Assembly: GCA_965650445.1 (NCBI GenBank)
Contig: CBFGOU010000001.1
Span: 4,095-68,094 of the forward strand
Reading direction: 5' to 3'
From: an uncultured Oxalobacteraceae bacterium
GTDB taxonomy: Bacteria > Pseudomonadota > Gammaproteobacteria > Burkholderiales > Burkholderiaceae_D
DNA: 64,000 nt
Positions 2,945 through 29,800 of the stretch are shown here, piece by piece. The translations under genes and the position numbers were made by a program. A model generated the notes under the pieces. That model did not search any database. It was not told the DNA's origin and saw only the letters and a program-made list of their open reading frames with translations. Numbering within the stretch: the first letter of the stretch is position 1; every line of letters begins with the position of its first letter.

Positions 2945-3373
2945 ATGATCAAACGTTCCGGTAGCGCCGTCTGGAGTGGCGGCCTGAAAGATGGAAAAGG
3001 ATCGATTTCGACCCAGAGCGGCGTGCTCGACAACACGCAATACGGCTTCAACACCCGTTTCGACAACGGCCCGGGCACCAACCCCGAAGAACTGATCGGC
3101 GCGGCGCATGCGGGCTGCTTCACGATGGCGCTGTCCGCCCAGCTGGGCGAGGCCGGCATGACCGCGCAAAGCCTGAAAACCACGGCCACGGTGTCCTTGG
3201 AGAAGGACGAACAGGGCTTTGCGATTACCGCCGTGCACCTCAATCTCATCGCCCACATCCCCGGCGCCAATCAGGAAGCGTTCGAAGCGGCCGCCCTGCG
3301 CGCCAAGCAGAATTGCCCGGTGTCGAAGCTGCTCAACGCCACCATCACACTGGACGCGCGCCTGGAGAATTAA
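2945..3373 (+). CDS. osmC: OsmC family peroxiredoxin
   Basis: GTNPEELIGAAHAGCFTMAL and CPVSK; AGGAGG RBS. Confidence 0.95.
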   Translation: MIKRSGSAVWSGGLKDGKGSISTQSGVLDNTQYGFNTRFDNGPGTNPEELIGAAHAGCFTMALSAQLGEAGMTAQSLKTTATVSLEKDEQGFAITAVHLNLIAHIPGANQEAFEAAALRAKQNCPVSKLLNATITLDARLEN

Positions 3374-3486
3374 GGGCCGCCCGGCGGCCGGTGCGCAGGT
3401 CGCTTAGAATCGCAGTTTGTTCCCGCACTCTTTCATGAGTGGCGGTGCGATTCTCCACGTACTAACGACAATTACAGGGGTTTATA

Positions 3487-3906
3487 TTGAAGTACCTGCA
3501 CACGATGGCCCGGGTCACCGACCTCGAGGCCTCGCTACGATTTTATCGTGACGCCCTCGGTTTAGAGGTCGTCCGCCAGCGAGAGTACCCGCAAGGGCGG
3601 TTCACGTTGGTCTACCTTGCCGCCCCTGGCGACCGAGGCGCTGAACTGGAACTGACGTATAACTGGGATCCGGAAGAGTACGCCGGTGGACGCAACTTCG
3701 GCCACCTGGCCTATGAGGTCGAAGATATTTACGCGGCGTGCCAACGGCTGGTCGATCATGGCATGACGATCAACCGTCCGCCGCGCGACGGCCACATGGC
3801 ATTCGTGCGATCGCCGGATAATATTTCGATCGAACTGTTGCAGGCCGGTGCACCTCTCGCACCACAAGAGCCATGGGCGTCGATGCCCAATACCGGGGCC
3901 TGGTGA
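3487..3906 (+). CDS. gloA: lactoylglutathione lyase (glyoxalase I, VOC family)
   Basis: [30 protein letters not shown]; TTG start. Confidence 0.9.
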
Positions 3907-4079
3907 TCAAGCATGCGCGGCTCTTCGGAGTCACGCAGCGAATCGACGGACGCTGGCCGCTGCGCAAATCGCCCCGGCATGACGGGGCCGTTCCCGTTGC
4001 TCTTGACAGACGGTCGTAAGAATTTCGTCATGTCACCGCCACGTGTGGAAGACCTTATAGTTACCACCAGCCTCAGATT

Positions 4080-4106
4080 CGTCGTTCCCGCAAAGGCGGG
4101 AACCCA
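4080..4106. repeat. REP-type palindromic element
   Basis: CGTCGTTCCCGCAAAGGCGGGAACCCA hairpin; reads WVPAFAGTT on the minus strand, typical of this REP class. Confidence 0.7.
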
Positions 4107-4320
4107 TAACCCGGTTGAGTAGGCAGCATTGGAATCCGCAGCGGAAACGTATTTCACCCCCTTGTTTTTTTCGCTAAACTACACTGCAATACCACCGCTA
4201 ATGTAGCGCCGAAGGCGGTCTCGCCGGCACGTACGTGTACGCGGGATAAGCCATGTTGTGCATCATGTATACCGTCATCGACAAATCCTCCGGCACTCCG
4301 GGGACACCTGGGAGACGAGG

Positions 4321-7300
4321 ATGACGCATCGACTGCGAATCCTTCATGTATCAGACTTACATGAACGCGTCGCTCTCGATTCCATGGATGACGAGCGCAA
4401 GCGGCGGATCGAACTCGGCGCTGCCTCTCGATACCGCGTCCTCGACGAAAGTAGTCTTTACGACAGAATTGCCGAACTGCGGGCGGATGGCCCGATTGAC
4501 CTCGTCTGCTTCACAGGCGACATCGCGGACTGGGGACTGGCCGAAGAATATGCCGCCGCCTCCGGGCGTATCAGGCGCATCCTCGATGCATGCGCTACAT
4601 CGGTTCATGCGCTCTTCGTGGTCCCGGGAAATCACGACGTCGATCGAAGCCGCAATCCCACGGAGTGGAAAGAGTTTCGCGATTTCACCACACGTTACGC
4701 CGCCGAGGTCGGCCGATGGATGGCCGCTCCGCATTCAATTCCCCTTGGCGCTAAGGCCGAGTGGCGGGAAGCGGTGCTACGTCGTAGCGAGAACTTCTGG
4801 AACTGGGTCGCCAACGATCTCAAACGAACGGCGCTCTCGCCCGCCGCCAGCGCACATCACGCACTCGGGTACAGAAATACGGTCGCGGTGCGCGACCTGC
4901 CGTTTCCGGTGCACGTGATTGGACTCGATTCGGCTTGGCTTGCAGGGGACAATCACGATAAGGGAATGCTCAGGCTTACCGCCGAACAGATCAGAATGCT
5001 GGTCCACGAAAAAGCGTACCCGCTCAAAGGCTTCCGGCTGGCGCTCGTTCATCATCCGTTGGCAGACCTTGCCGACCAGATTGGCGCGACGCACAGACTC
5101 TCCGAACGCGTGGACCTTCTGCTGCACGGACATCAGCACGAAGCGCTCGCCATGTCGATTGCCGATCCGCAGCGATCGCTTCCGGTGCTTGCGGCGGGCT
5201 CGCTCTATGAGGGCGATCACGAAGACAGATACGACAACGCGTTTCAGTGCATCGATGTGACGCTCGATGATACCGGCCGCCCGCTTGCATACGATGTCAC
5301 TTTCCTCGCGTGGTCTGAACGCGGGCATTGGCACCGGTCAAGCGCGTTTTATCACACGGATTCCAATGGCAAGCTCCACGTCGACGTTCCACACCGAAAG
5401 CCGGCGACCGCTGATGACCGTACCGGAACCGGTGAAAGTGCGAAGTTACCTGCTTCCAGATGGCTCGACGGTTTGCACGCTACCCCACTGTGGCGGAGCG
5501 TATCGCACGCGCCTTTGCCACTGGCGCGCCGCATCAATGTTCTCGTGTTGCGAGCACAAGCGATCTTCGATTGCGCCCTTGAGCGCGTGCCCGACGAACG
5601 ATGGCGTGATGCCGAGAGCCCCCTGCGCGTTCTGCACCGCCTTGATATCCTTCTTGGCAATGGCGAGGCGCAACTTTCGCCTGCGGAAGCGGCACTCACA
5701 TGCATCGCGCCATTCGTCTATGAGGCTGTTCTGGCGGCGGGCCAGGTAATGCTCGCGGCGGAAGGCGACCCTCTCGATCCTTTGAGGAAAGGCGACAATC
5801 CCGGGGCGAAGCCTGCCTGGTCCGCGTTGCGCAATGCAATCCGCTCCGAGGAGGCAATGATGAGCCGGCGCGAGCGCCTGGTTCAGCGTGACATGCTGGA
5901 GGCTGCACAGGATCTGTCGGGGTGGCAACTGAACCAGTTCCTGCACTCGAGCGGCGAGTTATGGGACTTCGTGCCGCAGGCGGGGGAACGGGCTGGCGGC
6001 TGGATCAACAAGACCCTTGACGAGCTCTTTGCCCCCTCGCCCGCGCCGGACGAACAGGACGACCGGATACGACAGATCATCAACGGAAGGCGCGTCGTTC
6101 AGCTTTCCCGCTTTCTCTTCGCCTCGTCTCAAGAAATTGAGCTCGCGCGTGCCCCCGACCGCGCCAATCGACTACTCGACGAGGTGCGCGTGGGCGACTC
6201 ACCCGACGAATGGCGGCTCAGGGAGCCGTTGCTCGCGCACCTCGTTTCGATTGCCGCTGCAATGGAGGCCGACCCTCGGCGGCTCGACCCGGTGCTCATC
6301 GAGCATGTCGGGATGTCGTCCGGTCTGGTCGCGACATCCCTGCGCCGACAGCTTCGGAGCATTACCTGGAATCGTGTTGGTGACGACTTGGTGATGAACC
6401 TGCACTGCGAACATGAGGCGATCGATTTCGCAGCACAACATCTGGTGGAATCGCTCGAACGGCACAATCAAAAGTTGAAAGAAACCGACACCGTCGGCGA
6501 ACCGCTCAGAAGCGCCCTGCCCGCGCACTTCACCGACAAAGGCATCCTGCCGATGACCGATCGAAGCGGCCGCCCCGTCTACAGGCGGCCGCATCTTCAG
6601 GTGACGCTCGATCAAGGGCGCATCCTGCATCTGCTCATGGGAACCTCACTGTACGGCAATCCCGAGTTGGCGTTGCGCGAACTTTACCAAAATGCCCTCG
6701 ATGCGTGCCGCCTGCGCCGGGCGCGCGTCGCCTACCTGAAAGCGTCAGGTGAACGCATCGACGATTATGCCGGCAGGATCATATTCGAAACAGGCGTCTT
6801 CGAAGGAAGAGCCTTTGTGCAATGTGAAGACAACGGGATCGGCATGGGAGAACGTCATCTCCGCTCCTTCTTCGCTCAGGGTGGACGGCGCTTCTCGGAT
6901 AGTCACGAATTTCATGTCGAAAAGGCTATTTGGAACGAGCGCGGCATTCAGTTCTTTGCCAACAGTCGATTCGGAATCGGCGTGTTCAGTTATTTCATGG
7001 TCGCCGACGAATTGATGGTTCAATCGAAGCGGCTCGGGCTCAATGGGGAAGATTGGGAAGCCGGCGTGCGTGCACACATCGTCGGAGGGAGCAGCCTGTT
7101 TCGAATACAGCATGCCGACGATGTGCGAGGCGGAACCCTCGTGCGGCTGTATCTTCGTGACCCGCACATCGTTCACGACCTGACTGAACGTATCTTGGAT
7201 TGGCTCTGGCTGCCCGAGGTCGAGGTGGTATTCAAGAGACCCGATCAATCGGGATCACGCCTGAAAGCCGGGCAACCAACGCCGGGGTTTGTAGATTCGG

Positions 7301-10269
7301 TCACCTCATTGGTCCCGGTGCAGCAAAGCCTCGACGAACGCGGCCATGCGCGGGTTTTCTGGGTAGTTTCGCCACGCCTGGGCATGCCGCAATCATACGG
7401 CTTGCTAGTCGACGGCATTCGCACCAACAATGCCAGCCAGAGCGAGGTACCGCATGCCATTGTCAATCTGAATGACGATCTGGCGCCAGATCTGACGGTC
7501 GACCGCTCGCGGGTGACCTCCTGGGAGAAAGGATTTTCCTATATCGCCAGCCTTATCCGGCAGGGCGCGTGGCGCGAACTCTGCCAGCTTCCAGAGCTGG
7601 ATCTCATATCCCTCGAAGAAATGTTCCGCGCGTGGCCACTTCCGTTATTGCCGCTAGACAAGGCCTGGCGCTGCGGTGAAATCGGGCAGATCGCGCCTGC
7701 ATTGCAAACCGATTCGTATGACCTGAACGACGACACGCAGCTGCACCGTCTTGCGCGTGCCTCCCTCGGCGTTGCGCCCGCGCTGGATGCGCTCATCCTC
7801 AATCTGGCCGGACTGCGCGTGACTTTCCGCAACGAAAGGCATGGATCCGATGTGGAGCAGGATGAACCAACGGACGCGAATTGGCGACTTGCCGATTCGG
7901 TACACGGCGCAGCGTTCGCGCGACTCATCGCAGCGCGCGCGTTGGCACTTGAGAAAGCTGGCGTGAAACTCTTGGGGCAGTACCCGCTGCTTGCACAGTT
8001 CGCGCACGAGAACAACTGGCGCGATCAGCCCACGCTGGGTTTGATCCTTCTTCAGGACCATTTGCGCGCGCCGGCCAACGGCTCGCTCAAGATCCTCGTC
8101 GCGGAGTTGCTGAAGATCAGTCACCTTTGGTCGCTCAGGCTCGACGAGGTGGCGACTCTGGCACGGCACCTCGCGCCGCTTGAGATTCTGCTCCCTGACC
8201 TGGAGCGTTTTCCCGAGAACGCCGTGCTCACTCAAGGACAGACAAGCCTGCTAAAGGCGGTCTTCGGCGCCACACCGTGGAGCGACTCGATCGCCCTTGG
8301 CGCAGTCATTGCAGCTTCCATCGCGATAGCGATGCCACTCGATGAAGTGTCGACGGTAGCCCGTGAACTCGCCGATTTCGGCATGGATGTGCCCTGTCCC
8401 TTGCCCGATACTTCCGGTCTCGCGTTAACTGAACAGCACCAGCTTCTGTTGTCCACCGATCTATCGCGCAGCGGCCCATGGCTCGACACGCTCTCTTTGC
8501 AGCACCTGCTGTCTGCGGAGAATCGCTTGCATATCCCGCTGGACCGCGTGCACGCGTTGGCCAGCCAATTGGTGGCGCTCGGCATCGAAGCGCCCGATCT
8601 AAGCAGCTTTCTGCAAGACAGCCGTCAACGCACACTCTTGTCGCTAGAGCTGGATGGCCAATCACCGTGGCACGACAGCTTGTCCGGCGCCCATATCGTT
8701 GCCGCTGCCGTGAAGTGGTCGACATCACTTGCGGAGGCGGCCGAGGTCGCGCAAAAACTGGGAAAGCTCGGTGTTGCCTTGCCGCAAATCGCTGATCCCC
8801 TCCCATCGTTTATTCCCGACCAGCGTTCTCTGACCCTGACGACATCACGATGGTACGACATTGGCGACAACGATCCCTCCCGCGTGAGTCTTGCAAGGGT
8901 GCTGCGAGCGGCGGCCAGCTGGACTATGCGAGTGGGCGATGTCCTGGCTCTGGCACGCCCATTGATGTCGATCGGTGTCCAGATCTGCGAAGTGCCGGAC
9001 TGCGCAGGCGATTTCGTTCCTGAGGCGCGGCATCTCATGCTCCTGTCCGTTCATCTGGACGCCGCGGCGATCGACACCAGCGTCATTCCCTCATCCCGGC
9101 TTGTATGTGCAGCGATCGAATGGCGGCTATCCGTCCGCGAAGTCATCGAACTCGTGCGGCCCCTTGCGGGCCTCGGCATCGCGATCCGCTACCTCGACGA
9201 CATCGCCACTGCTTGTCCGCCAACGCCAATGCAGGCATTGCTTATCTCCCGCAATCTCGATGCCGGGCCGCCATGGCTTACCTGGATTTCGGCGGGGCAT
9301 GTTCTGGAAGCGCGCGTCAAACTGCAGCTTGACGCGCAGGAGGTGGCGCAAGCTTGCCATTCGCTCGCTGCCATGGGGTTCGAAGTTGCCGATCTGAATC
9401 ACGATGTTGCCAGACCTGTCCCGACTCGCCTTGTGCAACTGCTCTCCGAAGACCTGGATGGCAAGAGTCCCTGGGCGGGGAAAATCGATGCCGAGCGCGT
9501 GCTGCGGGCCAGTGTTCTCTGGCACAAGCCGATCGGGTACATCGTCGACATGGCGCGCCCGTATGGCGTACTGGAGCCGGCGCTGTGCCAGCTCGATTCG
9601 TCATTGGCCGCTTTCGAGCCCGAGCAGCGACACCTGGACCTGATGTCTGCGGACCTCAACGGTCCCGGCCCGCATGTGACGGCGTTGCCCGTCGGTCATC
9701 TGCTCAAGGCGGGCCTGATGTGGGCAATCAGCCTGCGGCAAGTCTACGAGCTTGCCAAACCGCTGGTGCAACTGGGCCTCGCAAGCTTGCCTGAACTTAG
9801 CCCCGCGCAACAGGATTTCGCGCACAGCGAGCGGCACGTGTTTCTGCTATCCGCAGATCTGGACGGCAGAGCGCCATGGGTAGAAAAGTTCTCCCCAGCA
9901 CATCTGTTCGAAGCCGCCCGCAAGCTGTCCTGGCCGCTTTCGAACACGCTGAACGCGGCTGCACGACTGCAGGCTCTGGGCATCGCGATGCCGGCAAACG
10001 GCGTGCTGGCATTCGAAAAGAGCGAGCGGGCCAGCCAATTGCTCGATAGTCTGCATTACGGGCAGCGCCGCGTATGTGCATGGAACATCGTCGACCTCGC
10101 CATTCTTCACCACACCGATGTTCTCGACTATGCGCAGGCGTTGCCCTTGCTCGTCGAGATGGATGTGGACGTCAGCGACGCGCTGCAATTCGTCAGCTTC
10201 TGTGGCAAGCTTGGCCCCGCCAGGCCTTGCTTACCCGGCCCATTCAATCCGGATGACGCCGCATCGTGA
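4321..10269 (+). CDS. Calcineurin-like metallophosphoesterase + helical domain + HSP90/GHKL ATPase + about 10 C-terminal helical (wHTH-like) repeats
   Basis: SDLH, GDIAD, PGNHD, HHP, GHQH; RELYQNALDA, DNGIGM, SRFGIG, GGT; repeats LLSxDLDGxxPW...LxxLG from about 8040 to 10000; GAGG RBS before ATG 4321. Confidence 0.85.
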   Translation: MTHRLRILHVSDLHERVALDSMDDERKRRIELGAASRYRVLDESSLYDRIAELRADGPIDLVCFTGDIADWGLAEEYAAASGRIRRILDACATSVHALFVVPGNHDVDRSRNPTEWKEFRDFTTRYAAEVGRWMAAPHSIPLGAKAEWREAVLRRSENFWNWVANDLKRTALSPAASAHHALGYRNTVAVRDLPFPVHVIGLDSAWLAGDNHDKGMLRLTAEQIRMLVHEKAYPLKGFRLALVHHPLADLADQIGATHRLSERVDLLLHGHQHEALAMSIADPQRSLPVLAAGSLYEGDHEDRYDNAFQCIDVTLDDTGRPLAYDVTFLAWSERGHWHRSSAFYHTDSNGKLHVDVPHRKPATADDRTGTGESAKLPASRWLDGLHATPLWRSVSHAPLPLARRINVLVLRAQAIFDCALERVPDERWRDAESPLRVLHRLDILLGNGEAQLSPAEAALTCIAPFVYEAVLAAGQVMLAAEGDPLDPLRKGDNPGAKPAWSALRNAIRSEEAMMSRRERLVQRDMLEAAQDLSGWQLNQFLHSSGELWDFVPQAGERAGGWINKTLDELFAPSPAPDEQDDRIRQIINGRRVVQLSRFLFASSQEIELARAPDRANRLLDEVRVGDSPDEWRLREPLLAHLVSIAAAMEADPRRLDPVLIEHVGMSSGLVATSLRRQLRSITWNRVGDDLVMNLHCEHEAIDFAAQHLVESLERHNQKLKETDTVGEPLRSALPAHFTDKGILPMTDRSGRPVYRRPHLQVTLDQGRILHLLMGTSLYGNPELALRELYQNALDACRLRRARVAYLKASGERIDDYAGRIIFETGVFEGRAFVQCEDNGIGMGERHLRSFFAQGGRRFSDSHEFHVEKAIWNERGIQFFANSRFGIGVFSYFMVADELMVQSKRLGLNGEDWEAGVRAHIVGGSSLFRIQHADDVRGGTLVRLYLRDPHIVHDLTERILDWLWLPEVEVVFKRPDQSGSRLKAGQPTPGFVDSVTSLVPVQQSLDERGHARVFWVVSPRLGMPQSYGLLVDGIRTNNASQSEVPHAIVNLNDDLAPDLTVDRSRVTSWEKGFSYIASLIRQGAWRELCQLPELDLISLEEMFRAWPLPLLPLDKAWRCGEIGQIAPALQTDSYDLNDDTQLHRLARASLGVAPALDALILNLAGLRVTFRNERHGSDVEQDEPTDANWRLADSVHGAAFARLIAARALALEKAGVKLLGQYPLLAQFAHENNWRDQPTLGLILLQDHLRAPANGSLKILVAELLKISHLWSLRLDEVATLARHLAPLEILLPDLERFPENAVLTQGQTSLLKAVFGATPWSDSIALGAVIAASIAIAMPLDEVSTVARELADFGMDVPCPLPDTSGLALTEQHQLLLSTDLSRSGPWLDTLSLQHLLSAENRLHIPLDRVHALASQLVALGIEAPDLSSFLQDSRQRTLLSLELDGQSPWHDSLSGAHIVAAAVKWSTSLAEAAEVAQKLGKLGVALPQIADPLPSFIPDQRSLTLTTSRWYDIGDNDPSRVSLARVLRAAASWTMRVGDVLALARPLMSIGVQICEVPDCAGDFVPEARHLMLLSVHLDAAAIDTSVIPSSRLVCAAIEWRLSVREVIELVRPLAGLGIAIRYLDDIATACPPTPMQALLISRNLDAGPPWLTWISAGHVLEARVKLQLDAQEVAQACHSLAAMGFEVADLNHDVARPVPTRLVQLLSEDLDGKSPWAGKIDAERVLRASVLWHKPIGYIVDMARPYGVLEPALCQLDSSLAAFEPEQRHLDLMSADLNGPGPHVTALPVGHLLKAGLMWAISLRQVYELAKPLVQLGLASLPELSPAQQDFAHSERHVFLLSADLDGRAPWVEKFSPAHLFEAARKLSWPLSNTLNAAARLQALGIAMPANGVLAFEKSERASQLLDSLHYGQRRVCAWNIVDLAILHHTDVLDYAQALPLLVEMDVDVSDALQFVSFCGKLGPARPCLPGPFNPDDAAS

Positions 10270-10817
10270 ACAGGACGACCGTGCCAGCCCCAATAGCCGA
10301 GAAGGCCGCACAGCAGCGCCTCGCACGGGCGGCAAGGTACTTCATGCATTCCCCGGTGCCGATTCCCGAAACGACGCTCATGGCGCTGCGCAACGCTGGC
10401 GTCGACCCGAGGGTCGCCAGGATCAACCTGGAGTCGGTCAAGGCCATCCTGCGCATCGAAAAGAGATGGTCGAAAGCGCGCACCGTGCAAGCCGAACTCG
10501 AATACAAGCGGATGCTCACGTTGCTGCTTTGGAATCCGGGTCTGCCACATCCAATCGTACCCACCCGGCTCGTGGACGAAATCTGGCACAGACATATACT
10601 CGATACACGTGCATATCACCAGGACATGCAGGAGCTCTTCGGCGAGTATCTGCACCATTTTCCGTACCTTGGTTTTCAAAATGAAGAGAGCCTCCGACTG
10701 AAAAACGAGGCATTTGAACTTTCGTGCCAGTTGTACGAGCGGACGTTCGGCGAACCCTTCTCGGCCTCCACCGTCAAACGCCTGGCAGTGCAAACGACAA
10801 AAAGGAGCCGTACATGA
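10266..10817 (+). CDS. GRDP-like (glycine-rich-domain-protein-like) conserved His-motif protein
   Basis: PTRLVDEIWHRHILDTRAY...FGEYLHHFP motif; GTG start overlaps upstream TGA. Confidence 0.7.
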   Translation: MNRTTVPAPIAEKAAQQRLARAARYFMHSPVPIPETTLMALRNAGVDPRVARINLESVKAILRIEKRWSKARTVQAELEYKRMLTLLLWNPGLPHPIVPTRLVDEIWHRHILDTRAYHQDMQELFGEYLHHFPYLGFQNEESLRLKNEAFELSCQLYERTFGEPFSASTVKRLAVQTTKRSRT

Positions 10818-11482
10818 AAGAGCGAGAGGTGATTGCGTCCAAGACGCTGGCCAGTGCACGCAGCCTGTTTGAAGAGACACTCGCACGCGAATCATCCAGG
10901 CAGAAATGGGAGCGCTTGTTCGTCAAATATCCGTACGCGTTGACGACCTTGCTGCCTCTGGCCGTTTACCCTGAGCACATCGTTCCAAGCGAATGCAGCG
11001 GTGAACTTCCTGTCGATATGGTTTTCTATTCACGTGACGATGGCGTTGCGCGTTACGGCGCGGTCGAACTAGACAGCCCAGGGGTGCTCGCCGAAGCACC
11101 AGCCCGGACCAGGATCGCAGGCCTGGCCGGCGACTCCGGGAACGCCATTCTCGAATTGCAGAGTCGAATTGTCCCAGGCAAAGAACTACATCATTCGAAG
11201 CGGAACGTCGTGTGTGTGGGTAACCGCTCGATTCTTTTTTTCGTCTTCGGTATTGAGGACGATCTTTACCCAATGCTTGTGGCGGAGTGGGGGCGCGAGG
11301 GGGCACTTCCCCGAACGCTTCAACTCGTGCCCTTCGAATTCCTGCGCCGGCTTTTTACCTTGAACGTGAAACCCCAGATCCTGCTCCTCGGACCCGACCG
11401 CCGGCAAGGTACCAACAGCGCAGAGTTCAGACTCACACCCGAACCCGAAATCGACGACTTGAGCAGCACGCGCTGTGGCTAG
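10814..11482 (+). CDS. hypothetical protein resembling a degenerate Shedu/DUF4263 PD-(D/E)xK domain
   Basis: QKWERLFVKYPYAL, VDMVFY...AVELDSP, LQLVPFEFLRR resemble DUF4263 blocks; AAGGAG RBS; ATGA overlap. Confidence 0.5.
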   Translation: MKEREVIASKTLASARSLFEETLARESSRQKWERLFVKYPYALTTLLPLAVYPEHIVPSECSGELPVDMVFYSRDDGVARYGAVELDSPGVLAEAPARTRIAGLAGDSGNAILELQSRIVPGKELHHSKRNVVCVGNRSILFFVFGIEDDLYPMLVAEWGREGALPRTLQLVPFEFLRRLFTLNVKPQILLLGPDRRQGTNSAEFRLTPEPEIDDLSSTRCG

Positions 11483-11619
11483 ACGGAGGGTATTTTCGCT
11501 ACTTGAGTGAGGTGGTTTGCAGCGCCATCCGCACCGCCGCCGCATATGCATCCGATTCCTGCCCACGCCTCAGATCACCATGCTAGAGTTGGTCACCATC
11601 AACATGTCCGTCAACTCTC

Positions 11620-13077
11620 ATGCATGCAACTCGCACTCGACTCGCGGCATCGCTCGCCCTGCTGGCGTTCTGCCTGCCCTCCTTCGCCCGCGACACGCTC
11701 GAAGAACGCATTGCGCGGGTAGAAAACGGATTGCGTCCGGCTATTGCCATCAAGGGCCGGGCTGCCAACACGTCAAAGCTTGCCGACCGCATGGCCGCCC
11801 TCAAGGTGCCGGGTGTGAGCGTCGCGGTGATTAACGGCGGGACGATCGAGTGGGCGCGCGGATACGGTCTGGCCGAAGCCGGCACCACGCGCATGGTCAC
11901 GCCGGACACCCTGTTCCAGGCCGCCTCGATCAGCAAGCCAGTGGCGGCGATTGGCGCGTTGCGCCTGGTCGAACAAGGCAAGCTGTCACTGGACGAAGAC
12001 GTCAACGTCAAGCTGCAAACATGGAAGCTGCCGCCGGGTGCGCAAAGCGCCGACAACGCAGTCACATTGCGCAAACTCCTCAACCACAGCGCGGGCACAA
12101 CCGTGCATGGCTTTCGCGGCTACGCGCGCGGCGAGCCGGTGCCGACGCTGATTGAAGTACTGAACGGCACCAAGCCAGCCAACTCCGCCGCGGTCCGGGT
12201 CGACACCAGGCCGGGCGAAACCTGGCGCTATTCGGGCGGCGGGCTGAGCATCGTCCAGCTGTTGATGTCTACCGCATCGGGCAAGGACTTCGCGCCGCTG
12301 ATGAAAGACAGCGTGCTCGATCCTCTGGCCATGAAACACAGCACCTTTCAGCAGCCGCTGCCACCGGCCTTGCATGCGCAGGCGGCGACCGGCCACGATC
12401 AGCAGGGCGCACCAATCAAAGGCAAATGGCACACCTACCCGGAGCAGGCCGCCGCTGGCCTGTGGAGCACGCCGTCCGACCTGGCACGCTATGCGATCGA
12501 ACTGCAAAATGCCAGTGCGGGCAGGTCGAACAAGGTGATTTCCGCAGCGATGGCCAAGCAAATGCTCACGCGCCTGAAGGGAGATTACGGCCTGGGTATC
12601 GCCGTCGGCGGTGCGATGAATGTGCCGACCTTTAGCCACGCCGGCTCCAATGAAGGCTTCAAGGCGATGCTGTTCGCCTACACCAGCACCGGCCAAGGGG
12701 CGGTCATCATGACCAACGGCGACCTGGGCGGAGCGCTGGTGCCCGAGATTTTACGCAGCCTTTCAGCGGAATACGGCTGGTCCGATTACCGCGTCAACGA
12801 ACGGGTTCTCGCCTCCGTCGACAGCAAACTGTACGCCGCCTATGCCGGCAATTACCGGGTCGGTGGCGTGCCGATCACTGTCACCCGCGAAGGCCAGCGC
12901 CTGTTCATCCAGGCGCCACCGCTGGGCGCCGAGCGTGTCGAACTGTTCCCCGCCAGCAATACCAGCTTCTTCGCCCTGATCGAGCAGGCCGAATTCAGGT
13001 TTGAAAAGGACGCCGCCGGTGCGCAGGAACTGGTCATCAAGGCTGGCAACACCATCCGGGCAAAGCGCGTGCCGTAA
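11620..13077 (+). CDS. serine hydrolase (beta-lactamase/AmpC family) with C-terminal DUF3471-like domain, secreted
   Basis: Signal peptide; SISK (SxxK), LLNHSAG, YSG, HAG motifs. Confidence 0.9.
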   Translation: MHATRTRLAASLALLAFCLPSFARDTLEERIARVENGLRPAIAIKGRAANTSKLADRMAALKVPGVSVAVINGGTIEWARGYGLAEAGTTRMVTPDTLFQAASISKPVAAIGALRLVEQGKLSLDEDVNVKLQTWKLPPGAQSADNAVTLRKLLNHSAGTTVHGFRGYARGEPVPTLIEVLNGTKPANSAAVRVDTRPGETWRYSGGGLSIVQLLMSTASGKDFAPLMKDSVLDPLAMKHSTFQQPLPPALHAQAATGHDQQGAPIKGKWHTYPEQAAAGLWSTPSDLARYAIELQNASAGRSNKVISAAMAKQMLTRLKGDYGLGIAVGGAMNVPTFSHAGSNEGFKAMLFAYTSTGQGAVIMTNGDLGGALVPEILRSLSAEYGWSDYRVNERVLASVDSKLYAAYAGNYRVGGVPITVTREGQRLFIQAPPLGAERVELFPASNTSFFALIEQAEFRFEKDAAGAQELVIKAGNTIRAKRVP

Positions 13078-13317
13078 AAGCGCGTGCCTTCAACCGGGCA
13101 GACAGCTTATTGCGCAAGCGTCCCGATGGCGTCGCTCCCATGCCGCCCTGAAACTATGCACAAAATGTAAGCATTCCTCAAATTAAATTTTCCAAAACTC
13201 CACTCTCACATGGTTTAAATTTTGTCAAAGCGAGCTCACCCATGCGCGCTAACGTCGTCATAGGCCGCGAACGAGCCCTGCGGCCTAAATCTCAGCGGCT
13301 CGATGAGGAGAAGCATC

Positions 13318-13815
13318 ATGGGTACCGAGAAAGACAATGACGATCACGACAAGGACTGCCACGACAAGCATGACAAGTGTCGTGACCATTGCCACGATCA
13401 CGACCACGACCACGACGATTGCAAGAAGAAGGACGACTGCAAGAAGCGTGACTGCGACGACTGGAAGTACAGCGAGCACTACAAGTATCGCGAGTACACC
13501 AAGTATCGCGAGCACGACGACGACAAGTGCCACGACGACCACAAGAAGGGCCGGCACTACCAGTCGCACCACATCCACGAGCTGGAAAAAACCATCAGGG
13601 CCCTGGCCGACGCGCTGGCAGCCCTCGGGCGCGGCGCCCACCTGCATGAATTGCTGCGCCTCATACATCAGCCCGGATGGACCACACCGGCCGAACTCGC
13701 CTTCGTCAATGCGATCCTCGACCACATCAGCGTCGACGTGCGCGCGCTAGACCGGCTGCAAGCCGATCTGGTGGAAGCCAGCAGGAAAGTTGTGAAAGTC
13801 CGGGACCGCGACTAG
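13318..13815 (+). CDS. His/Asp/Cys/Lys-rich protein with helical C-terminal domain
   Basis: GAGGAG RBS; low-complexity HDHDHDDCKK N-terminus; C-terminal IHQPGWTTPAE. Confidence 0.7.
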   Translation: MGTEKDNDDHDKDCHDKHDKCRDHCHDHDHDHDDCKKKDDCKKRDCDDWKYSEHYKYREYTKYREHDDDKCHDDHKKGRHYQSHHIHELEKTIRALADALAALGRGAHLHELLRLIHQPGWTTPAELAFVNAILDHISVDVRALDRLQADLVEASRKVVKVRDRD

Positions 13816-13880
13816 GCGCCCTGCCGCCCGCCCGCACCCGAAGGGCCTGGCATGTTCCTGGCCCGCGGGTGCCGGCGGGT

Positions 13881-15239
13881 TTATTTCGCCAACAAATTAT
13901 TCACCGGCACCAGATCAGCTTCGCGCAGCGAACCGGCGGCCGCCTTCAGGCGCAGACCGTTGACGATGGTGTCGTAACGCGCCCGCGCCAGATCGCGGCG
14001 GGTCGAGTACAGCTGGCGCTGGGCGTTGAGCACGTCGATATTGATCCGCACGCCAACCTGGTATCCCAGCTTGTTCGATTCCAGCGCCGAGGTGCTGGAC
14101 ACTTCCGCCGCCTGCAGCGCCTTGACCTGCGCCAGGCCGCTATTGACGCCCAGGAAAGCCTGGCGCGCGCTCAGTGCGGCGTTGCGGCGCGTGCTCTCCA
14201 GATCCTGGCGGGCTTTTTCTTCCAGCGCGATGGTTTCGCGCACCCGGCTGGTCACGGCAAACCCGCTGAAGATCGGCACGTTCCACTGCACGCCGATCGC
14301 CTTGCTATCGGTCGTACCGGCACCGCTGAGCTGGCCGCTGACCTTGTTGCGGCTGGCGCTGGCGATCAGGTCCAGGGTCGGATAATGGCCGGCACGGCTC
14401 TTCTGGATTTCGCGCTTGGCCATTTCATAATTGAGCTGGGCGCTGGTCACGCCATAGTTCGCGCTTTCCGCCGACGACACCCACGGATCGATCACCGCAG
14501 GTTCGGGCGCGGCCAGCACCACGCTCGGCTTGAGCGGCGCCAGCCCGGACGGCGCGCTACCGATGATGGCCTGCAAGGCGCTGCGCTTGTTTTCCAGATC
14601 GTTCTGGGCGGCGTATTCCTGCGCCACCACCAGATCGTAGGCCGCTTGCGCCTCGTGGGTATCGGTAATGGTCTGGGTGCCGACTTCAAAGTTGCGCTTG
14701 GCCGATGCCAGCTGCTCGGTGGTGGCGGTCTTTTGGGCGCGGGTCAGTTCGAGCGTGTCCTGCGCGGCCAGCACGTCGAAGTACGCCTGCGCCACGCGGG
14801 TGATCAGGTCCTGCTGGGCCTGGGCGAAGGCGGCTTCGGCAGCGGCCGCCTGCAGCTTGCTCTGCTCGTAAGTCTGCCAGTTAGCCCAGCGGAACAGCGG
14901 CTGCACCAGCGAGATGGTGGCCTGGCTCGAATGGTTGTTCACGCTGCCGCCCAGGACGGTCGTGCTGGTGCCGTTCGGCAGCAGGATCGTCTGGCCCTCG
15001 TTGAACGGCGAGGAATCGGTATCGTTCTTGGTGTAATTACCGCTGGCCTGCACCGATGGCAGCAATTGCGAACGCCCCTGCGGTACCCGCTCGCGGCCTG
15101 CAGCCAGCGATGCGCGCGCACTGGCGTAGGCAGCGTCGTTGGCCAGCGCTTGCTGGTAGACCTGAATCAGGTCCGCGGCCTGTGCGTCCAGCGTCAGAAA
15201 AGCGCTGGCAATCAGCACGGCGAGTAGGGGTTTCTGCAT
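13881..15239 (-). CDS. tolC: TolC family outer membrane protein
   Basis: Signal peptide, ADLIQVYQQAL, VAQAYFDVL, YQVGVRINIDVLNAQ. Confidence 0.93.
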   Translation of the reverse strand: MQKPLLAVLIASAFLTLDAQAADLIQVYQQALANDAAYASARASLAAGRERVPQGRSQLLPSVQASGNYTKNDTDSSPFNEGQTILLPNGTSTTVLGGSVNNHSSQATISLVQPLFRWANWQTYEQSKLQAAAAEAAFAQAQQDLITRVAQAYFDVLAAQDTLELTRAQKTATTEQLASAKRNFEVGTQTITDTHEAQAAYDLVVAQEYAAQNDLENKRSALQAIIGSAPSGLAPLKPSVVLAAPEPAVIDPWVSSAESANYGVTSAQLNYEMAKREIQKSRAGHYPTLDLIASASRNKVSGQLSGAGTTDSKAIGVQWNVPIFSGFAVTSRVRETIALEEKARQDLESTRRNAALSARQAFLGVNSGLAQVKALQAAEVSSTSALESNKLGYQVGVRINIDVLNAQRQLYSTRRDLARARYDTIVNGLRLKAAAGSLREADLVPVNNLLAK

Positions 15240-22916: not shown

Positions 22917-24701
22917 ATGCTCAATACTACGGATAATTCGTCCAATACAATGCTGCCGTATTTCCCCGCGGGCTTTCCCGACGAGACCATAGGATCTCGA
23001 ATCAGCCGCTACCATATTCTTCGTGGTCAGCCGACTATTCAAACAACGTACGGACAGCTGTTCGATCGACTCCCGTTCAGTTCAAATGCAATGGTGCACC
23101 CGCATCTTGACAGGCTCGCCAAAAAGCTCCCGGGGTCGGCTGCGCACAACCTGATGACGCTGCACGCGGAGAGTACTCTCGGTCCGCTTTTCCAACGTTT
23201 TGCCGGCACAAGGCTCGATAGCACGACCACCGTGAGAGGGAACGATGCGCCGCTCCCTAGTCGCCCCAGGCGAATCCGTGGAGACAGCCGCCTCACGCAC
23301 ATCTGCGCACAATGCTTGCGGGATGATCAAACGTCGCTTGGCTCGCCCTATATCCACAGATCCCACCAGATACCCGGTGTCACATCTTGCTGGCGCCACG
23401 AAACTCGGCTGCTTGACCGGTGCCCATTCTGCCGGTGCCCGTTCGCACGGCCAAATGAACTGATTCTTTCCGCATGGCTGGGATGCGCATGTGGCTCATC
23501 CATCGCCGAGCATGTGCCAACCGAGCCATGGAGTCCTTCGGAAATCGAGAGGGAATTCGCAGAGTTCACAAGACAGCTCCTGGCCTCCGAAACGGTTCCT
23601 CTATCCGCGAGACAGCTCGTCGCCATCTACAAGCACAGGGCGCTTGAACTTGGCTATGGGTGGGGCGACCAGAAGATTAACCGCAAGCGGTTATTTGACC
23701 ATCTCGAAAAATTCTTCGGCGAGGCCCTGCTGGGGAAGATGGACCCGGCCTACGGGAAGGGAAAAACGAGCGGCTGGTTTCACCTACTGACACCAAGCTC
23801 CAGTCAAGAAACCCCTTTGAACAGGCATCTTATATTTGTATATTTTCTATTCCGCGATCCGTCGCTTTTCTTATCCCGCTCCGTTGCTGCCGCCAATACT
23901 GATCTCAGCATGTTCGCTGACACTCACGCTAGCGATCCCAATGTTCAGAAGGGTGTCGTTGGCGACACGCAGCCAAATGATCCTGCCCAAGTCCTCTTTG
24001 CCGAACTGACCGAGGCCGCTCAGCGTTTTGGCTATGACACTCAGCAATTGTGGCAATACCATTTCAGCGCCATGAAACGACTGGTGAAACTGATGCCAGA
24101 GGCGAGCACAGTGCTGGATGCTTATTTTCGAAAGACCAAAGAGAAGGAAGTGCGCACAGCGCTAGCAGCCTTCAAATCGCGCGAACGACTACGCCGAACC
24201 GACGTCAAGTGGTCGGACGAAATCACCGCGACGGCGCCTCGCCTTATCTGGAAGGATATAAGGCCGGTAAAGATTACCAAGCATCAGCTTCTCAACGGCG
24301 GATCCATCAAGCAAGCTACCTGGCCGGTACCATCGAAATACCCGTTGACCTGCGTCGCACTCAACCAGAAAGCAGAATCGATGTGGCATTTTTATGCGCG
24401 GCGAATGCTCTGGACCTTGCAAGCGTTGAACGATCCACACACGCCAGCGCACAAGATAATTATCCTGGCGGCGCTCGAGGTTAATAAAGCGCGAGCGGTC
24501 CTCGCGTTCTTTTCCGACGCGCCTCGCGGGGGTGGGACTTCCATGGAAATAATCAGGGCAATACTGAAAGGCAGGGGTATCGGTACGGACTGGAAGGGAC
24601 CGTGCCCAGAGCAGGAGTTCTACCGGGCCGGGAGGGCCTACAAATTGCGAACCTCACGCTGGGGTCCAATTGGTGGAAAAGCAGGGGATACCGACAAATA
24701 G
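22917..24701 (+). CDS. tniQ: TniQ/TnsD target selector (long, 594 aa)
   Basis: PDETIGSRISRY, CAQC...HRSHQIPGVTSCWRH, CPFC, CACG zinc motifs. Confidence 0.85.
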   Translation: MLNTTDNSSNTMLPYFPAGFPDETIGSRISRYHILRGQPTIQTTYGQLFDRLPFSSNAMVHPHLDRLAKKLPGSAAHNLMTLHAESTLGPLFQRFAGTRLDSTTTVRGNDAPLPSRPRRIRGDSRLTHICAQCLRDDQTSLGSPYIHRSHQIPGVTSCWRHETRLLDRCPFCRCPFARPNELILSAWLGCACGSSIAEHVPTEPWSPSEIEREFAEFTRQLLASETVPLSARQLVAIYKHRALELGYGWGDQKINRKRLFDHLEKFFGEALLGKMDPAYGKGKTSGWFHLLTPSSSQETPLNRHLIFVYFLFRDPSLFLSRSVAAANTDLSMFADTHASDPNVQKGVVGDTQPNDPAQVLFAELTEAAQRFGYDTQQLWQYHFSAMKRLVKLMPEASTVLDAYFRKTKEKEVRTALAAFKSRERLRRTDVKWSDEITATAPRLIWKDIRPVKITKHQLLNGGSIKQATWPVPSKYPLTCVALNQKAESMWHFYARRMLWTLQALNDPHTPAHKIIILAALEVNKARAVLAFFSDAPRGGGTSMEIIRAILKGRGIGTDWKGPCPEQEFYRAGRAYKLRTSRWGPIGGKAGDTDK

Positions 24702-24719: not shown

Positions 24720-25919
24720 ATGTTGATAACCCGCCTACCCATTCCGTATACCGACGAAACGCTCTACAGCGTTGCAGCGAGGACGCGCCGTGCAAATGCG
24801 GCAAGAGATGATCGCGACGCATGCCGAAGCCTGTTTGGTCCGTCACGAACGATGCGCGTGTCAGAGTTCCCGGTGAATCTTCTGCACTTTTGCGCTGCCA
24901 CGAATGGAATGCTTGGCAATCCGCTAGAGGTCCTTGACGCGATGACGGTGACAGGGTTCTATGATCGGGTGGGAGGTCGGCCATGGCGAACTGGCAGTTC
25001 GTGCATTCCCGCAATAACAGCAGGATATGCCTTATCGACTCTATCCAACGGCACCCTTTGGCTGTGGCGAGCATGTGCACAATGTGTGAAATCGGACCGC
25101 GCCATCCATGCGACAGCGTATTGGCGGCGAGCACATCAACTACCGACTTCATTTTTCTGCGTGCTACACAATGCGCCACTGAGCGCATCGGTGGCAGCTG
25201 TGAAAGAACGCCACAACCGATTTCTTCTTCCCGACGAAACGCGACTCGACGACACGTATGCGCCCCTCGCACGGACCAAGGATGACGAAGCGCTAATGCG
25301 GCTGACCACGCTAGCGGTTGATGTCCTGCAACATATTGGTGCCCCGGTCAACGCGACAGCAGTGCATGCAACCATACTTCGTGCACTCGACAATCGCGCA
25401 CTGCTGACGGCTTCCGGCGCTATCCGTCAAGAGCCATTTGCCAGGGAATTCTTTCGACACTACGGATTCTTGAATCAACATCCGGAGTTTGCTTCTGCAG
25501 TGTCAATTACCGGCATCAATATCCTTGCGCGAAGCCTCCGGGGCGTCAATGCATGGAGATCGGCCACGCACAATATCCTGCTCATCGATTGGTTGTTCGG
25601 TTCCTGGCCGGCGTTCCTTGACCAATGCTATTGGCAATCGGTGATGGATTACCCGGGCGAAGAAACGGAACTGGCTTTGCTCTCAAATCCGCAGACGCAA
25701 ATTTGGTGGAAGACGCAGAAAAGCGTTGATCTATCAGAGAAACATGCCCATCGGCGGGCTTGTTTGGATTTTCTGAGCAAGCAAACACCCGCCCTGCGAA
25801 ATGTCTTCGCTCGCACTGCGCCCAAATCGTTCAGGTGGTTACTACGATACGATCCGGAATGGTTGGACCAGCATTGCCCGACTGCAGTAAGCCGCCCGGT
25901 CCAGGCCGAACTTTTTTGA
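24720..25919 (+). CDS. tniQ: second TniQ/TnsD-like protein (399 aa)
   Basis: PYTDETLYS, CAQC...YWRRAHQLP...CVLH; TnsD-like C-terminal WLLRYDPEWL. Confidence 0.85.
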   Translation: MLITRLPIPYTDETLYSVAARTRRANAARDDRDACRSLFGPSRTMRVSEFPVNLLHFCAATNGMLGNPLEVLDAMTVTGFYDRVGGRPWRTGSSCIPAITAGYALSTLSNGTLWLWRACAQCVKSDRAIHATAYWRRAHQLPTSFFCVLHNAPLSASVAAVKERHNRFLLPDETRLDDTYAPLARTKDDEALMRLTTLAVDVLQHIGAPVNATAVHATILRALDNRALLTASGAIRQEPFAREFFRHYGFLNQHPEFASAVSITGINILARSLRGVNAWRSATHNILLIDWLFGSWPAFLDQCYWQSVMDYPGEETELALLSNPQTQIWWKTQKSVDLSEKHAHRRACLDFLSKQTPALRNVFARTAPKSFRWLLRYDPEWLDQHCPTAVSRPVQAELF

Positions 25920-26539: not shown

Positions 26540-26861
26540 TTACGCTTGGCAAAACCAAGTCGTTGAGGTCCTGCTCTCCACTTGGTTAATGGCTATGCTT
26601 CGTCGCCAGCTCATGCTCGGCGCACCGCCTGCTGTCCTCCGGCCATCGTGGCCGAACTTGCCGTGTTAGCGACCTAACGGTCACTGTGGAGCGACTGCTC
26701 TCCCCACTTCCTACAGACAAGCAAATCCGGCGGTCAAAGCTACACATGGCGCCCCCTCGAGCGCAAGTCAAGGAATTTTTGATATGCTGTGCTTCCTTGT
26801 CGCCCGGAGGGCCAGCATTCACGCCATCGCCGACCCAACAGAGCCTTCTAAGAGTCAAGAA

Positions 26862-29800
26862 TTGAGCAAATTGCCCGGGAAACCTGCAGATCATACTGGC
26901 GGAAATCCGTCGTTGGACGGCTGGCACTACCAATGTGACGTATCCGTGTTTGCGGCGCTGGATCTGCTGGTGGTCAACCGTGTCGCCAAGGTGCTTCAGC
27001 TCGAGCCTGCGACACAGGAAGACCTGGAGGCGGAGCTTGAAGTCCCGCAGGTTTCGTCATCGGCTGTCGTGGACGGCGAACGCCTCGTCGTCCAAGCCAA
27101 ATTGCGTCGTACCGGCCAATGGACGCCCGCCTCACTGCGCGACTTGGTGGAGCACGGGGAGAAGCGCCCGTCCGCATTGAAGTTGTTGGAGGACACGAAG
27201 GTCCGGTACGTGCTGTTCACTAGTGCCGACGTGTCGGGAACGCTCGGTGCGCTGCAGGTCGATGCCCTGCTGGAGCGCCCCGGCGGCGACGACCTGCCGG
27301 CTGATGTGTTCCCGCCCACGCTCGTCCAAGCGGCGGCAGGCCGGTTCGCGGTGCTGGCTCAATACAACGAGGCGCGCGTTGTCGAGAAGATCGACGCTTA
27401 CTTACTTAGTCCTCTGAGCATCCCGAGAGAGCGCCACGAAGCCTGTCGCGAAGATCTCCGCAAAGCCGCAATGGCGGGGATGCGAATAGGCTACGCCTGG
27501 CCCAGGGGTGATGTGGAAGCCATTATCAAGATGCATGGTGGCTCCATCCCGTCTGAGCGCGACCGCAAGTTTGTCCCGCCCACGAACTGGGGCGACATCG
27601 TTGCCCAGATGGACAAGCGCAACGCCATCGTCATCACAGGGCCGTCGGGCACGGGCAAGACCACCGTGGCCAAGGCTCTCTACCAACACTACCGTAGCGT
27701 CGTGCCTGGGATCAGCTATGTGGAACCTGGAGGTCCTGGCGAGCTGAAGGTTCGGCCAGACGCCGGCCCTACCTTCTTCTACGTGGAAGATCCGTGGGGC
27801 AAGTATGAGATTGGCACCAACACGGCGGTATGGACAGTTGAGCTGGAGGAGCGGCTGCTGAAGGCCAGTGCCCAGCAGAAGATCGTGGTCACCAGCCGTA
27901 CCGATATCCTCGCCGCGACCGTCGGAAGTCAGAGCGACTTCCTCAAGCAGTGGGAAGTGCGGCTGGAGGCCAAGCACTACGGCGACAAGGAGCTGGGTAG
28001 GATGTACGAGGAGCTCGTCCGCCTCCTCGGCTCCAGTATCTTGCAGCTGGCAGCCATCCGTGCCAGGGAACGCGTCCTGCAAACGTTGCGGACCCCCTTC
28101 GAGATTGACCGCTTTGTGGCACTGCTGCAAGCCGGGGCTATCCCTGCCGACGAGAACGAAGACCAGTTCGTGTCGCGGATCCTGCACGAAACCCAAACCC
28201 GCGCCATCGAAAACGAGGTCGAGTTGATGGTGAAGGCGCGCCATTACGAGAAGGCAGCAGTGGTGCTGTGGGGTCTGATGAGCACCCGACATGGCGTGCG
28301 TCGCCAAGACTTGCCAACCATCCGGCGAGCCATCAGCAAGCTGGATCCGGCATTCGGCCCTGGGTTAGAAAGGCTCGTGAACGATCTAGTGGCCGGCGGC
28401 AGTCTGCGCCAGCCTAGCAGCGACGTCACGTATACCCACCCCCGTGTGGAGCAAGGCCTCATCCGTGTGGTGCGAGCCAACCCTGAGGTGACAGAAGTCA
28501 CCCTGGAACACCTGCTGACGGCTCTCGTCCGCATGGGCAACACTGGGAACACCCAGGCCGTTGAGACAGCAGTGCGACTCCACGCTTTCATCAAGGATTC
28601 CGACCAGTCCCTGTACGAGGTATCTCATGAAGTCCAACTCACCATCGACATTTGGCTGGAGGACGCGCTCAGCAAGGACCACGACGACTACGTTGGCCTG
28701 CTGCGCCTAGCCTGCATCGCCGGCTCCCGCGCATGCATCCCCGCTGAAGTCGCCCGGTGGTTGCGCCCTGTGACCACCGGCAAGCATTTCTTTATGCGCG
28801 ATTGGAAGCTCAGCAAACGCAGCGACGAATGGTACATGACGGTCCGCAACCATCCGCTCACGCAAGATGTTTGCGAGCGCTTCATTCGACTCGGCCTCAC
28901 CGTGGGCACCCGAGGCTATCCCGGCCGAATGGCCGAATACCTCGATACCATTGCATCGGGTCTGGATGCCGCTTGGCTAGACGCGGCGAAGATGATCGTT
29001 CATCGCGGCGAAGAAACCAATGCGATCACTGTCGGGTTCGGTGCCATGCGGGCCATCGAGAACCGCGAACCGCTGCTGCAACTCGCGCTCGCCGCACTCC
29101 GCGAGGAGGTTGAGGCGCTAAAGACGTACTCAGATCCCGAGCACTGGCCATTTATTGACGGCCACTACAACGGCGACTGGGAGCCTCTCGACGGCCACAC
29201 CGACTACTACTACGCCGCACGCGAACTGGTCTCTGCGTTCGCGGAGGCGACCCGTCGCGACTCGGGGTGGCACGCGCTTGCCGAACACAAGGATGCGCGC
29301 GCACTTGCCAGTGAGTGGTTTGATGCCATGGAAAAGGCCTCGGGCGCAGATGCCGGCGATGATGAGTTGCGGCGTCTGCTGGAACTGGGTAAAGGGGAAT
29401 ACCTTGAGCAGCGAATCTGGCGACTTTTGACGGAGAGGTGGCGCCCATCCTTCGTGGTCTCCCTCCGCGAGCGACTGCTTTCTGGCGACGAATCAGCGCA
29501 TCTGCGCGAAGTCGCAGCGCGCTGTGCCTTGGAACACGCGCCGGACTTGTTGACCGAAGTGGCCAAGGAGCTTTTTGATAAAGGCCAGACGGTACGGTTG
29601 CTGGAACTGGCGCACGACGCCAAAACCCACACTAAGCGCTTCGGCGTCAGGGGTAGCCAACACCTGGCCTACGATGCGTTCGAGCTGCGCCTGCCGGCGC
29701 CCTTCGGGGAGCTTGCGGCGGCGTTCGCGCCGTTGGACGATATCCAGGAAGTGCAACTCACCGACGCTTCACTGGATGGGTTGATTCCTCTGCTCGGAAA

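Follow-up and report, generated by a model that had tools for sequence, protein, structure and literature searches.

A rare, conserved three-gene cassette was found at positions 4321 to 11482 of a 64,000-nucleotide stretch of DNA (hereafter, the window) from an uncultured Oxalobacteraceae bacterium (assembly GCA_965650445.1, contig CBFGOU010000001.1, positions 4,095 to 68,094); positions below are those of the window. Gene 1 (4321..10269, + strand) encodes a 1,982-amino-acid protein composed of an effector, an iHD-CE domain, an Hsp90-like ATPase, and winged helix-turn-helix (wHTH) repeats. Gene 2 (10266..10817, +; the start may be 10281) encodes a tailless GRDP-like, or UCP032817-like (PF27765), helical protein, and gene 3 (10814..11482, +) encodes a Shedu (SduA_C)-like protein without catalytic motifs I, III-Lys, and IV. 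The three genes very probably act as one functional unit, and the cassette, judged from its relatives, is probably a defense system. Our preferred reading, to which we give a probability of about 0.45, is that of an abortive-type anti-phage cassette built by the capture of a GRDP/nuclease pair.

Recurrence of the trio and architecture of gene 1

A search that started from gene-2 homologues found the order gene 1-gene 2-gene 3 at a minimum of nine distinct bacterial loci, counting this one. The others are L017, L019, L023 (Polaromonas glacialis), L119, L120, L121, L129, and a contig for which DNA sequence is lacking, the third gene of which was judged by size and position only. Intergenic gaps across these loci range from -20 to +37 bp, and the G+C (GC) content of the loci ranges from 49 to 71%. 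Coupling of the trio is established at the level of sequence comparison. The effector slot varies over the nine loci: it holds a phosphoesterase in two, a trypsin behind an S8 gene in one, and a caspase behind Pepco in four, and it is cut off in the remaining two. In the four caspase-plus-Pepco cassettes, the caspase mounted on the gene-1 chassis has its His and Cys motifs. Pepco-protease pairs have been found by experiment to be anti-phage death modules (PMC12642450), and a defense role for the gene-1 chassis is therefore supported. In a quick tree of gene 1, the eight partner-bearing proteins all fall within one ten-member clade (Shimodaira-Hasegawa-like approximate likelihood ratio test [SH-aLRT] support, 99), with genomic context read for eight of the ten.

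The effector of gene 1 is a calcineurin-like phosphoesterase (4333..5142, +; amino acids 5 to 274; PF00149 [Metallophos] E value, 6e-11) in which all five metal motifs are present (D12-H14, GDIAD at 66, GNHD at 103, HHP at 244, and HGHQH at 269). It is followed by an iHD-CE domain (5461..6552, +; amino acids 381 to 744), which is assigned by PF24401 (E value, 6e-42; 144.5 bits against a cut-off of 27) over PF24391 (E value, 2e-22); the catalytic His/Asp positions of HD domains, placed by eye, are substituted in all 14 of the 14 aligned homologues. The third part is an Hsp90-like GHKL ATPase with a middle domain (6604..7920, +), its ATPase lying at about amino acids 762 to 948. The N-box (E787/N791), G1 (D837), and G3 (G938-T939) boxes are present, as is Arg1062 of the middle domain. 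HtpG matches the ATPase with an E value of 5e-16, and the HtpG-like protein of the same genome is 31% identical to it. The G2 box reads SRFGIG, a variant common to the whole family, where HtpG has GQFGVG. An identification of gene 1 as a canonical HtpG was rejected. The C-terminal region consists of wHTH-HSP90-associated repeats, of which there are ten, divergent and each about 66 amino acids long (8041..10026, +; amino acids 1241 to 1902). PF24410 matches five stretches of it (95.9 bits), and our own profile counts 10 repeats. The repeats and the middle domain are the least conserved parts of gene 1, with 20 to 38% identity to clade members. A first-pass annotation of the window had already read the metal motifs, the ATPase boxes, and about 10 repeats correctly, and it had overlooked the iHD-CE domain between phosphoesterase and ATPase.

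At least 787 relatives of gene 1 were counted, mostly with a caspase in front, and scans of 400-genome samples with PF24410 and PF24401 added 0 to 2 further members. Hsp90-like predicted immune proteins with HD-CE or iHD-CE domains and wHTH repeats reportedly go back to Nicastro and colleagues in 2023. A 2026 preprint that cites this study (bioRxiv 10.64898/2026.09.30.754977) describes the family as Hsp90-like defense proteins whose N-terminal domain is of the HD or calcineurin-like kind and whose C-terminal sensors vary; gene 1 alone is therefore a new member of a predicted defense family. As a separate observation, a genome of the same genus (G029) encodes, at L133:5503-10233, a phosphoesterase that is 42% identical to that of gene 1 and forms one protein with a STAND NTPase and TPR repeats.

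The GRDP-like protein and its Shedu-like partner

PF27765 was found on P0001, which is 98% identical to gene 2, and on 39 of 40 gene-2 matches. The predicted fold is a helical domain (predicted local distance difference test [pLDDT] score, 90), with a template modeling (TM) score of 0.70 against the PF27765 cluster and one of 0.60 against plant GRDP. A fold search gave no clear match to a solved structure (best Z score, 4.6), which is no proof of a new fold, and an Atlas feature search returned no usable match to distant named relatives. Seven His/Asp residues (D104, H108, H110, D113, D120, H130, and H131) are invariant or nearly so; this near-invariance around positions 104 to 131 suggests a putative metal site.

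The C-terminal Cys tail is absent from every member of the gene-2 clade. The tail could be read at 88 distal GRDP loci, a redundant sample in which about half belong to one freshwater subfamily; a Cys follows the domain in 83 of them, and Ser-based repeats follow it in 4 more. Distal tails are either of the CWHDC type or repeated cassettes (e.g., AMCG, AYCS, AWCA, and AFSG), with one ending in AKCG; the spacing is of the CxxxC type in some, and Ser replaces Cys in others (AFSA, AWSA, and AFSG). GRDP neighbors in other subfamilies include TauD, a radical SAM-TauD fusion, S9 peptidases, and CHASE sensors. From the tail motifs and these TauD and radical SAM neighbors elsewhere, we infer that GRDP proteins may modify a Cys/Ser peptide in a RiPP-like manner, as happens to peptides that are made on the ribosome and modified after translation.

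Other GRDP-like genes were observed along the way. The same genome carries two more (G000:C74:844-1701 and C351:4064-4840), one with repeated AFCA cassettes and one with a Ser/Gly/Cys tail. A widespread aquatic subfamily (L029-L075, L104-L110, and L113) has a four-cysteine tail of the CWHDC type; the preceding gene is often TauD and in one case a radical SAM-TauD fusion (L075:6299-7780). This subfamily looks like an undescribed candidate peptide modification cluster.

The cysteine ending missing from gene 2 is found on gene 3, which terminates in Cys-Gly-stop (11474..11482, +). Although gene 3 itself has no Pfam match, SduA_C (PF14082) matches 3 of 10 aligned relatives (best E value, 1e-7) and also P0049, the Atlas neighbors of gene 3 are SduA clusters (score, 0.90), and its family (329 representatives, with motif and tail counts made on the best 150) shows Shedu motifs I to IV in the same order. 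At these PD-(D/E)xK sites, where an intact nuclease has E (motif I), D (II), ExK (III), and Q (IV), gene 3 has R29, D68, E85-L-D87, and E114, respectively. The Glu of motif I, the Lys of motif III, the Gln of motif IV, and the RPG loop are lost in 8 of 8 three-gene members, which retain E85, R130, C134, G136, and the Cys-Gly end. By comparison, the same Glu, Lys, and Gln are kept in 97 to 100% of the other family members and in all five members with no observed gene 1, in which motifs I to IV are all retained. These five are L021 and L028, where gene 1 is clearly absent, the short contigs L027 and L128, and P0043, context having been read for all but the last. An identification of gene 3 as an active Shedu was rejected, motifs I, III-Lys, and IV being gone.

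The R130-x3-C134-x-G136 motif (11201..11221, +) goes with the GRDP pairing: R130 and C134 are invariant among GRDP-linked members and uncommon elsewhere in the family. Starting from gene 2, nine complete gene-3 sequences were found next to a GRDP gene, and all nine have the Cys-Gly end, which none of the 142 other family members among the best 150 has. These 142 keep E-x-K and are mostly longer; the one examined for context has no GRDP neighbor. Two extra proteins ending in Cys-Gly came from the gene-3 search, and both lie behind a GRDP gene, one being seen as a C-terminal fragment only. Across the nine loci, gene 3 is an intact open reading frame (ORF) of 216 to 235 amino acids, despite 23 to 40% identity.

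Two loci (L021:10001-11268 and L028:7651-8909) hold a two-gene form without the Hsp90 gene, in which a tailless GRDP is paired with a Shedu-like nuclease that has intact motifs and a Cys-Gly end; this form is by itself a candidate small system. In the gene-3 tree, the three-gene members form a long-branched clade (SH-aLRT, 98) next to the two-gene forms, and gene 2 nests alike, with support of 99 for the tailless clade and 85 for its three-gene subset. A structure model of gene 3, built on 10 sequences only (mean pLDDT, 78.7), gave no clear match to a solved structure (best Z score, 2.9; no Foldseek E value below 0.001), which with such a model is no proof of a new fold. No PDB sequence was matched by the gene-3 profile, and no gene-3 relative was found in viral contigs with the one pattern searched. 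Elsewhere in the search results, P0047-P0190 make up a large Shedu-like family in which the nuclease comes first and variable extensions follow at the C terminus, an order opposite to that usual in Shedu.

The first-pass annotation had described genes 2 and 3 as GRDP-like and degenerate Shedu-like and the trio as a coupled conflict module. The two family calls agree with PF27765 and with the SduA_C relatives and motif losses, and the module is borne out by the recurrence of the trio in the same order at nine distinct loci, by partners conserved beside one gene-1 clade, and by caspase and Pepco in the effector slot elsewhere. Its proposal that the two small partners modulate gene 1 understates how specifically genes 2 and 3 are paired; the swappable effector, the Cys-Gly tail, and the two-gene module with an intact nuclease site had escaped it.

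A proposed capture model for the cassette

Comparison of the two- and three-gene forms shows a tailless GRDP-like gene paired with a Shedu-like nuclease that bears the Cys-Gly tail normally found at the C terminus of GRDP-like proteins themselves. It also shows one lineage of this pair joined to an effector-iHD-CE-Hsp90-wHTH gene, with the nuclease stripped of its catalytic residues and keeping R130, C134, and the Cys-Gly end; quick trees suggest this order of events. Effector swapping, the presence of the tail in trans, and the selective loss of catalysis are themselves established by comparison among loci. In the present cassette, the gene 2 protein may bind metal through its His/Asp cluster and bind or modify the cysteine tail of gene 3; that it acts on the cysteines of gene 3 has slightly better than even odds. 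The gene 2/gene 3 pair would then be a decoy or adaptor that gene 1 holds or monitors through its repeats and its iHD-CE domain. Such decoy or guard logic, suggested by analogy, is tentative, and we put it somewhat below an even chance.

GHKL proteins are ATP clamps, calcineurin-like effectors act on nucleotides, and Pepco is activated by proteases. Infection would disturb the decoy, e.g., through a phage anti-nuclease protein, phage DNA, or an altered state of the tail, and the Hsp90-like ATP cycle would then, by what is known of the family, free the N-terminal effector. Here the phosphoesterase would probably degrade nucleotides and arrest the cell; in other loci, the caspase would cleave the Pepco pore-former. 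A role in conflict or defense of some kind is, on comparative grounds, quite likely. A bolder proposal, which we think has perhaps little chance of being right, is that GRDP/DUF1399 is a metal-dependent enzyme that modifies Cys/Ser in short C-terminal motifs and that its target here is the Cys-Gly end of a dead Shedu-like nuclease guarded as a decoy by the Hsp90-like clamp; a posttranslational modification of the peptide type would then arm or trigger the immune effector.

Several points weigh against the capture model. Partners were nearby in none of the three distant gene-1 homologues checked, and the majority of gene-1 relatives seem to do without them; within the ten-member clade, context was read for all but P0197 and the Roseateles homologue P0200. 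Cys-Gly pairing and loss of catalysis each have one origin on the trees, and the nine loci therefore represent retention and not independent events; the grouping of three-gene gene-3 proteins may also be due in part to long-branch attraction. We know of no activity or biochemistry for GRDP/DUF1399 in bacteria or plants, and because TauD or radical SAM genes adjoin other subfamilies, GRDP may have no enzyme activity and act as a carrier or leader domain. Finally, the osmC-tolC interval in which the cassette lies carries mostly nondefense genes in relatives (TonB receptors, glyoxalases, and two-component genes).

Of the competing explanations, direct sensing survives best, and we regard it as unlikely. 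The wHTH repeats would, as the first-pass annotation also proposed, sense the invader themselves, here by binding a phage molecule, and genes 2 and 3 would be merely damping or antitoxin accessories that hold the effector off. Taken alone, this gives no account of why R130, C134, and Cys-Gly are kept while the catalytic residues and RPG loop decay only in the company of gene 1, even if it agrees with the fast divergence of the repeats (20 to 38% identity), with the occurrence of distant gene-1 homologues without partners, and with the published family model as quoted in the preprint (bioRxiv 10.64898/2026.09.30.754977). It is distinctly improbable that the cassette is a redox or metal switch, in which C134 and C221 of gene 3 would form a disulfide or a metal site that gene 2 loads or reads, with dormancy or death triggered upon oxidative or metal stress, phage caused or otherwise. 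Two invariant gene-3 cysteines beside a gene-2 His/Asp cluster, CxxxC-type spacing in other GRDP tails, and the adjoining osmC and glyoxalase genes would suit such a switch, but none of the eight other loci has this gene context, the effectors are of kinds typical of anti-phage systems, and Ser stands in for Cys in some GRDP tails (AFSA, AWSA, and AFSG), so side-chain chemistry fits better than metal binding. Hitchhiking, with genes 2 and 3 forming a separate module that is decaying and happens to travel behind gene 1, is very improbable: it would fit their occurrence without gene 1 (L021 and L028) and the long gene-3 branches at three-gene loci, but gene 3 is intact (216 to 235 amino acids) at nine loci despite 23 to 40% identity, its catalytic residues are selectively lost with the Cys motifs fully retained, and order and tight spacing survive three effector swaps and 49 to 71% GC.

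Read as a captured GRDP/nuclease pair under an Hsp90-like chassis, the cassette, 7.2 kb long, is a compact, clonable candidate defense system that offers clear sites for mutation. Gene 3 would offer the GRDP/DUF1399 family a folded, soluble candidate substrate in trans, and the natural two-gene (intact site) and three-gene (dead site) forms allow a direct test of a defense enzyme turning into a decoy or adaptor.

Genomic setting and relation to known systems

The ATG start of gene 1 at 4321 is preceded by a GAGG ribosome site and agrees with the N termini of homologues. The overlaps GTGA (10266-10269, genes 1 and 2) and ATGA (10814-10817, genes 2 and 3) reported by the first-pass annotation are both in the sequence, and an AGGAG ribosome site serves the second. 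The first is uncertain: an alternative GTG start at 10281, with an AGGA site that is the better of the two, is the pick of the public gene caller, and given this ambiguity the junction may be an 11-bp gap instead of an overlap. Because a metagenome contig with the same three genes is 99.9% identical across 20.5 kb, the assembly is independently reproduced.

GC content at third codon positions is 0.65 to 0.70 in the cassette genes versus 0.83 to 0.89 in core neighbors. The cassette occupies a variable osmC-tolC interval (3373-13881), which in genomes of the same genus spans 0.5 to 10 kb from the osmC side to tolC and differs in content; no full-length gene 1 was present among the 60 relatives searched, and the cassette is a sporadic insertion. 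Its direct neighbors are a glyoxalase and a serine hydrolase, i.e., accessory genes, and not the core genes among which it had been placed. A defense hotspot was rejected, since TonB receptors, glyoxalases, and two-component genes are what the interval chiefly carries. The earlier statement that no mobility gene is present holds for the osmC-tolC interval, with the qualification that a separate Tn7-like element begins 5.9 kb downstream, past tetR. The window contains no tRNA or Rfam RNA as an integration site, and its promoter and terminator counts are at chance level only.

The Tn7-like element (17396 to about 41000, its extent being approximate) lies next to tetR and encodes an HTH protein, a TnsA-like protein, TnsB, TnsC, and two TniQ/TnsD proteins (22917-24701 and 24720-25919). 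Defense-like genes after these encode an nSTAND3 protein (26784-30836), an AAA_13 protein (33009-35417), and an HTH-IrrE peptidase (39842-40975). An assignment of the cassette to the cargo of this element was rejected, as tolC, rhodanese, pcm, and tetR, which are core genes, intervene. Upstream of gene 1, there is a 110-bp intergenic element (4026-4135) without an Rfam match; a copy at G000:C33:12458-12567 is 90% identical to it, and C416 carries a partial copy. Downstream, at 13303-13815, an ORF of up to 170 amino acids without a Pfam match has a low-complexity N-terminal half rich in His, Asp, Lys, and Cys and encodes a possible metal-binding protein.

No full-length match above a curated cut-off was obtained with PADLOC/NCBIfam models (DS-8, DS-9, PDC-S60, and CBASS effector), in keeping with the first-pass view that the combination was not a described system. 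Only the phosphoesterase domain matches named systems (55 versus 790 bits for DS-8 and 47 versus 420 for DS-9); its matches to DS-8, DS-9, and PDC-S60 are weak and fall under the cut-off wherever one is given. Genes 2 and 3 have no PADLOC match. Literature searches returned parts of the trio and not the trio; the 2023 study of Nicastro and colleagues, which was outside those searches, may list the neighborhood.

The cassette resembles the guard and decoy logic of plant NLRs, as generally known, in placing a dead copy of a defense enzyme beside a nucleotide-gated death effector; the likeness is one of analogy only, with no homology. With the Pepco-protease death modules it shares four homologous cassettes in which Pepco and a caspase accompany the gene-1 chassis, whereas this locus has a phosphoesterase in the effector slot, and the main text of the paper describing those modules (PMC12642450) makes no mention of Hsp90, wHTH, or Shedu. 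The gene-3 family is homologous to SduA_C of Shedu (SduA; DUF4263; PF14082) (bioRxiv 10.1101/2023.08.10.552793). Shedu, however, is an active nuclease encoded by one gene and usually preceded by a sensor domain at the N terminus, whereas gene 3 has no such domain, is tied to two other genes, always lies behind a GRDP-like gene, and ends in Cys-Gly; with a dead site and partner genes, it is a Shedu relative that falls outside Shedu proper. Gene 2 shares the helical domain and His/Asp motifs of the GRDP-like/DUF1399/UCP032817-like proteins (PF07173 and PF27765; AtGRDP1/2 in plants), but most of these carry a Cys/Ser tail in cis, while the gene-2 clade is tailless and the Cys-Gly end is on the next gene. 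Gene 1 has the full architecture of the iHD-CE/Hsp90/wHTH family, from the calcineurin-like effector through iHD-CE and ATPase to the repeats. What is new here is the addition, in one small clade of this known Hsp90-like family, of two downstream genes, one GRDP-like and the other encoding a dead Shedu-like protein.

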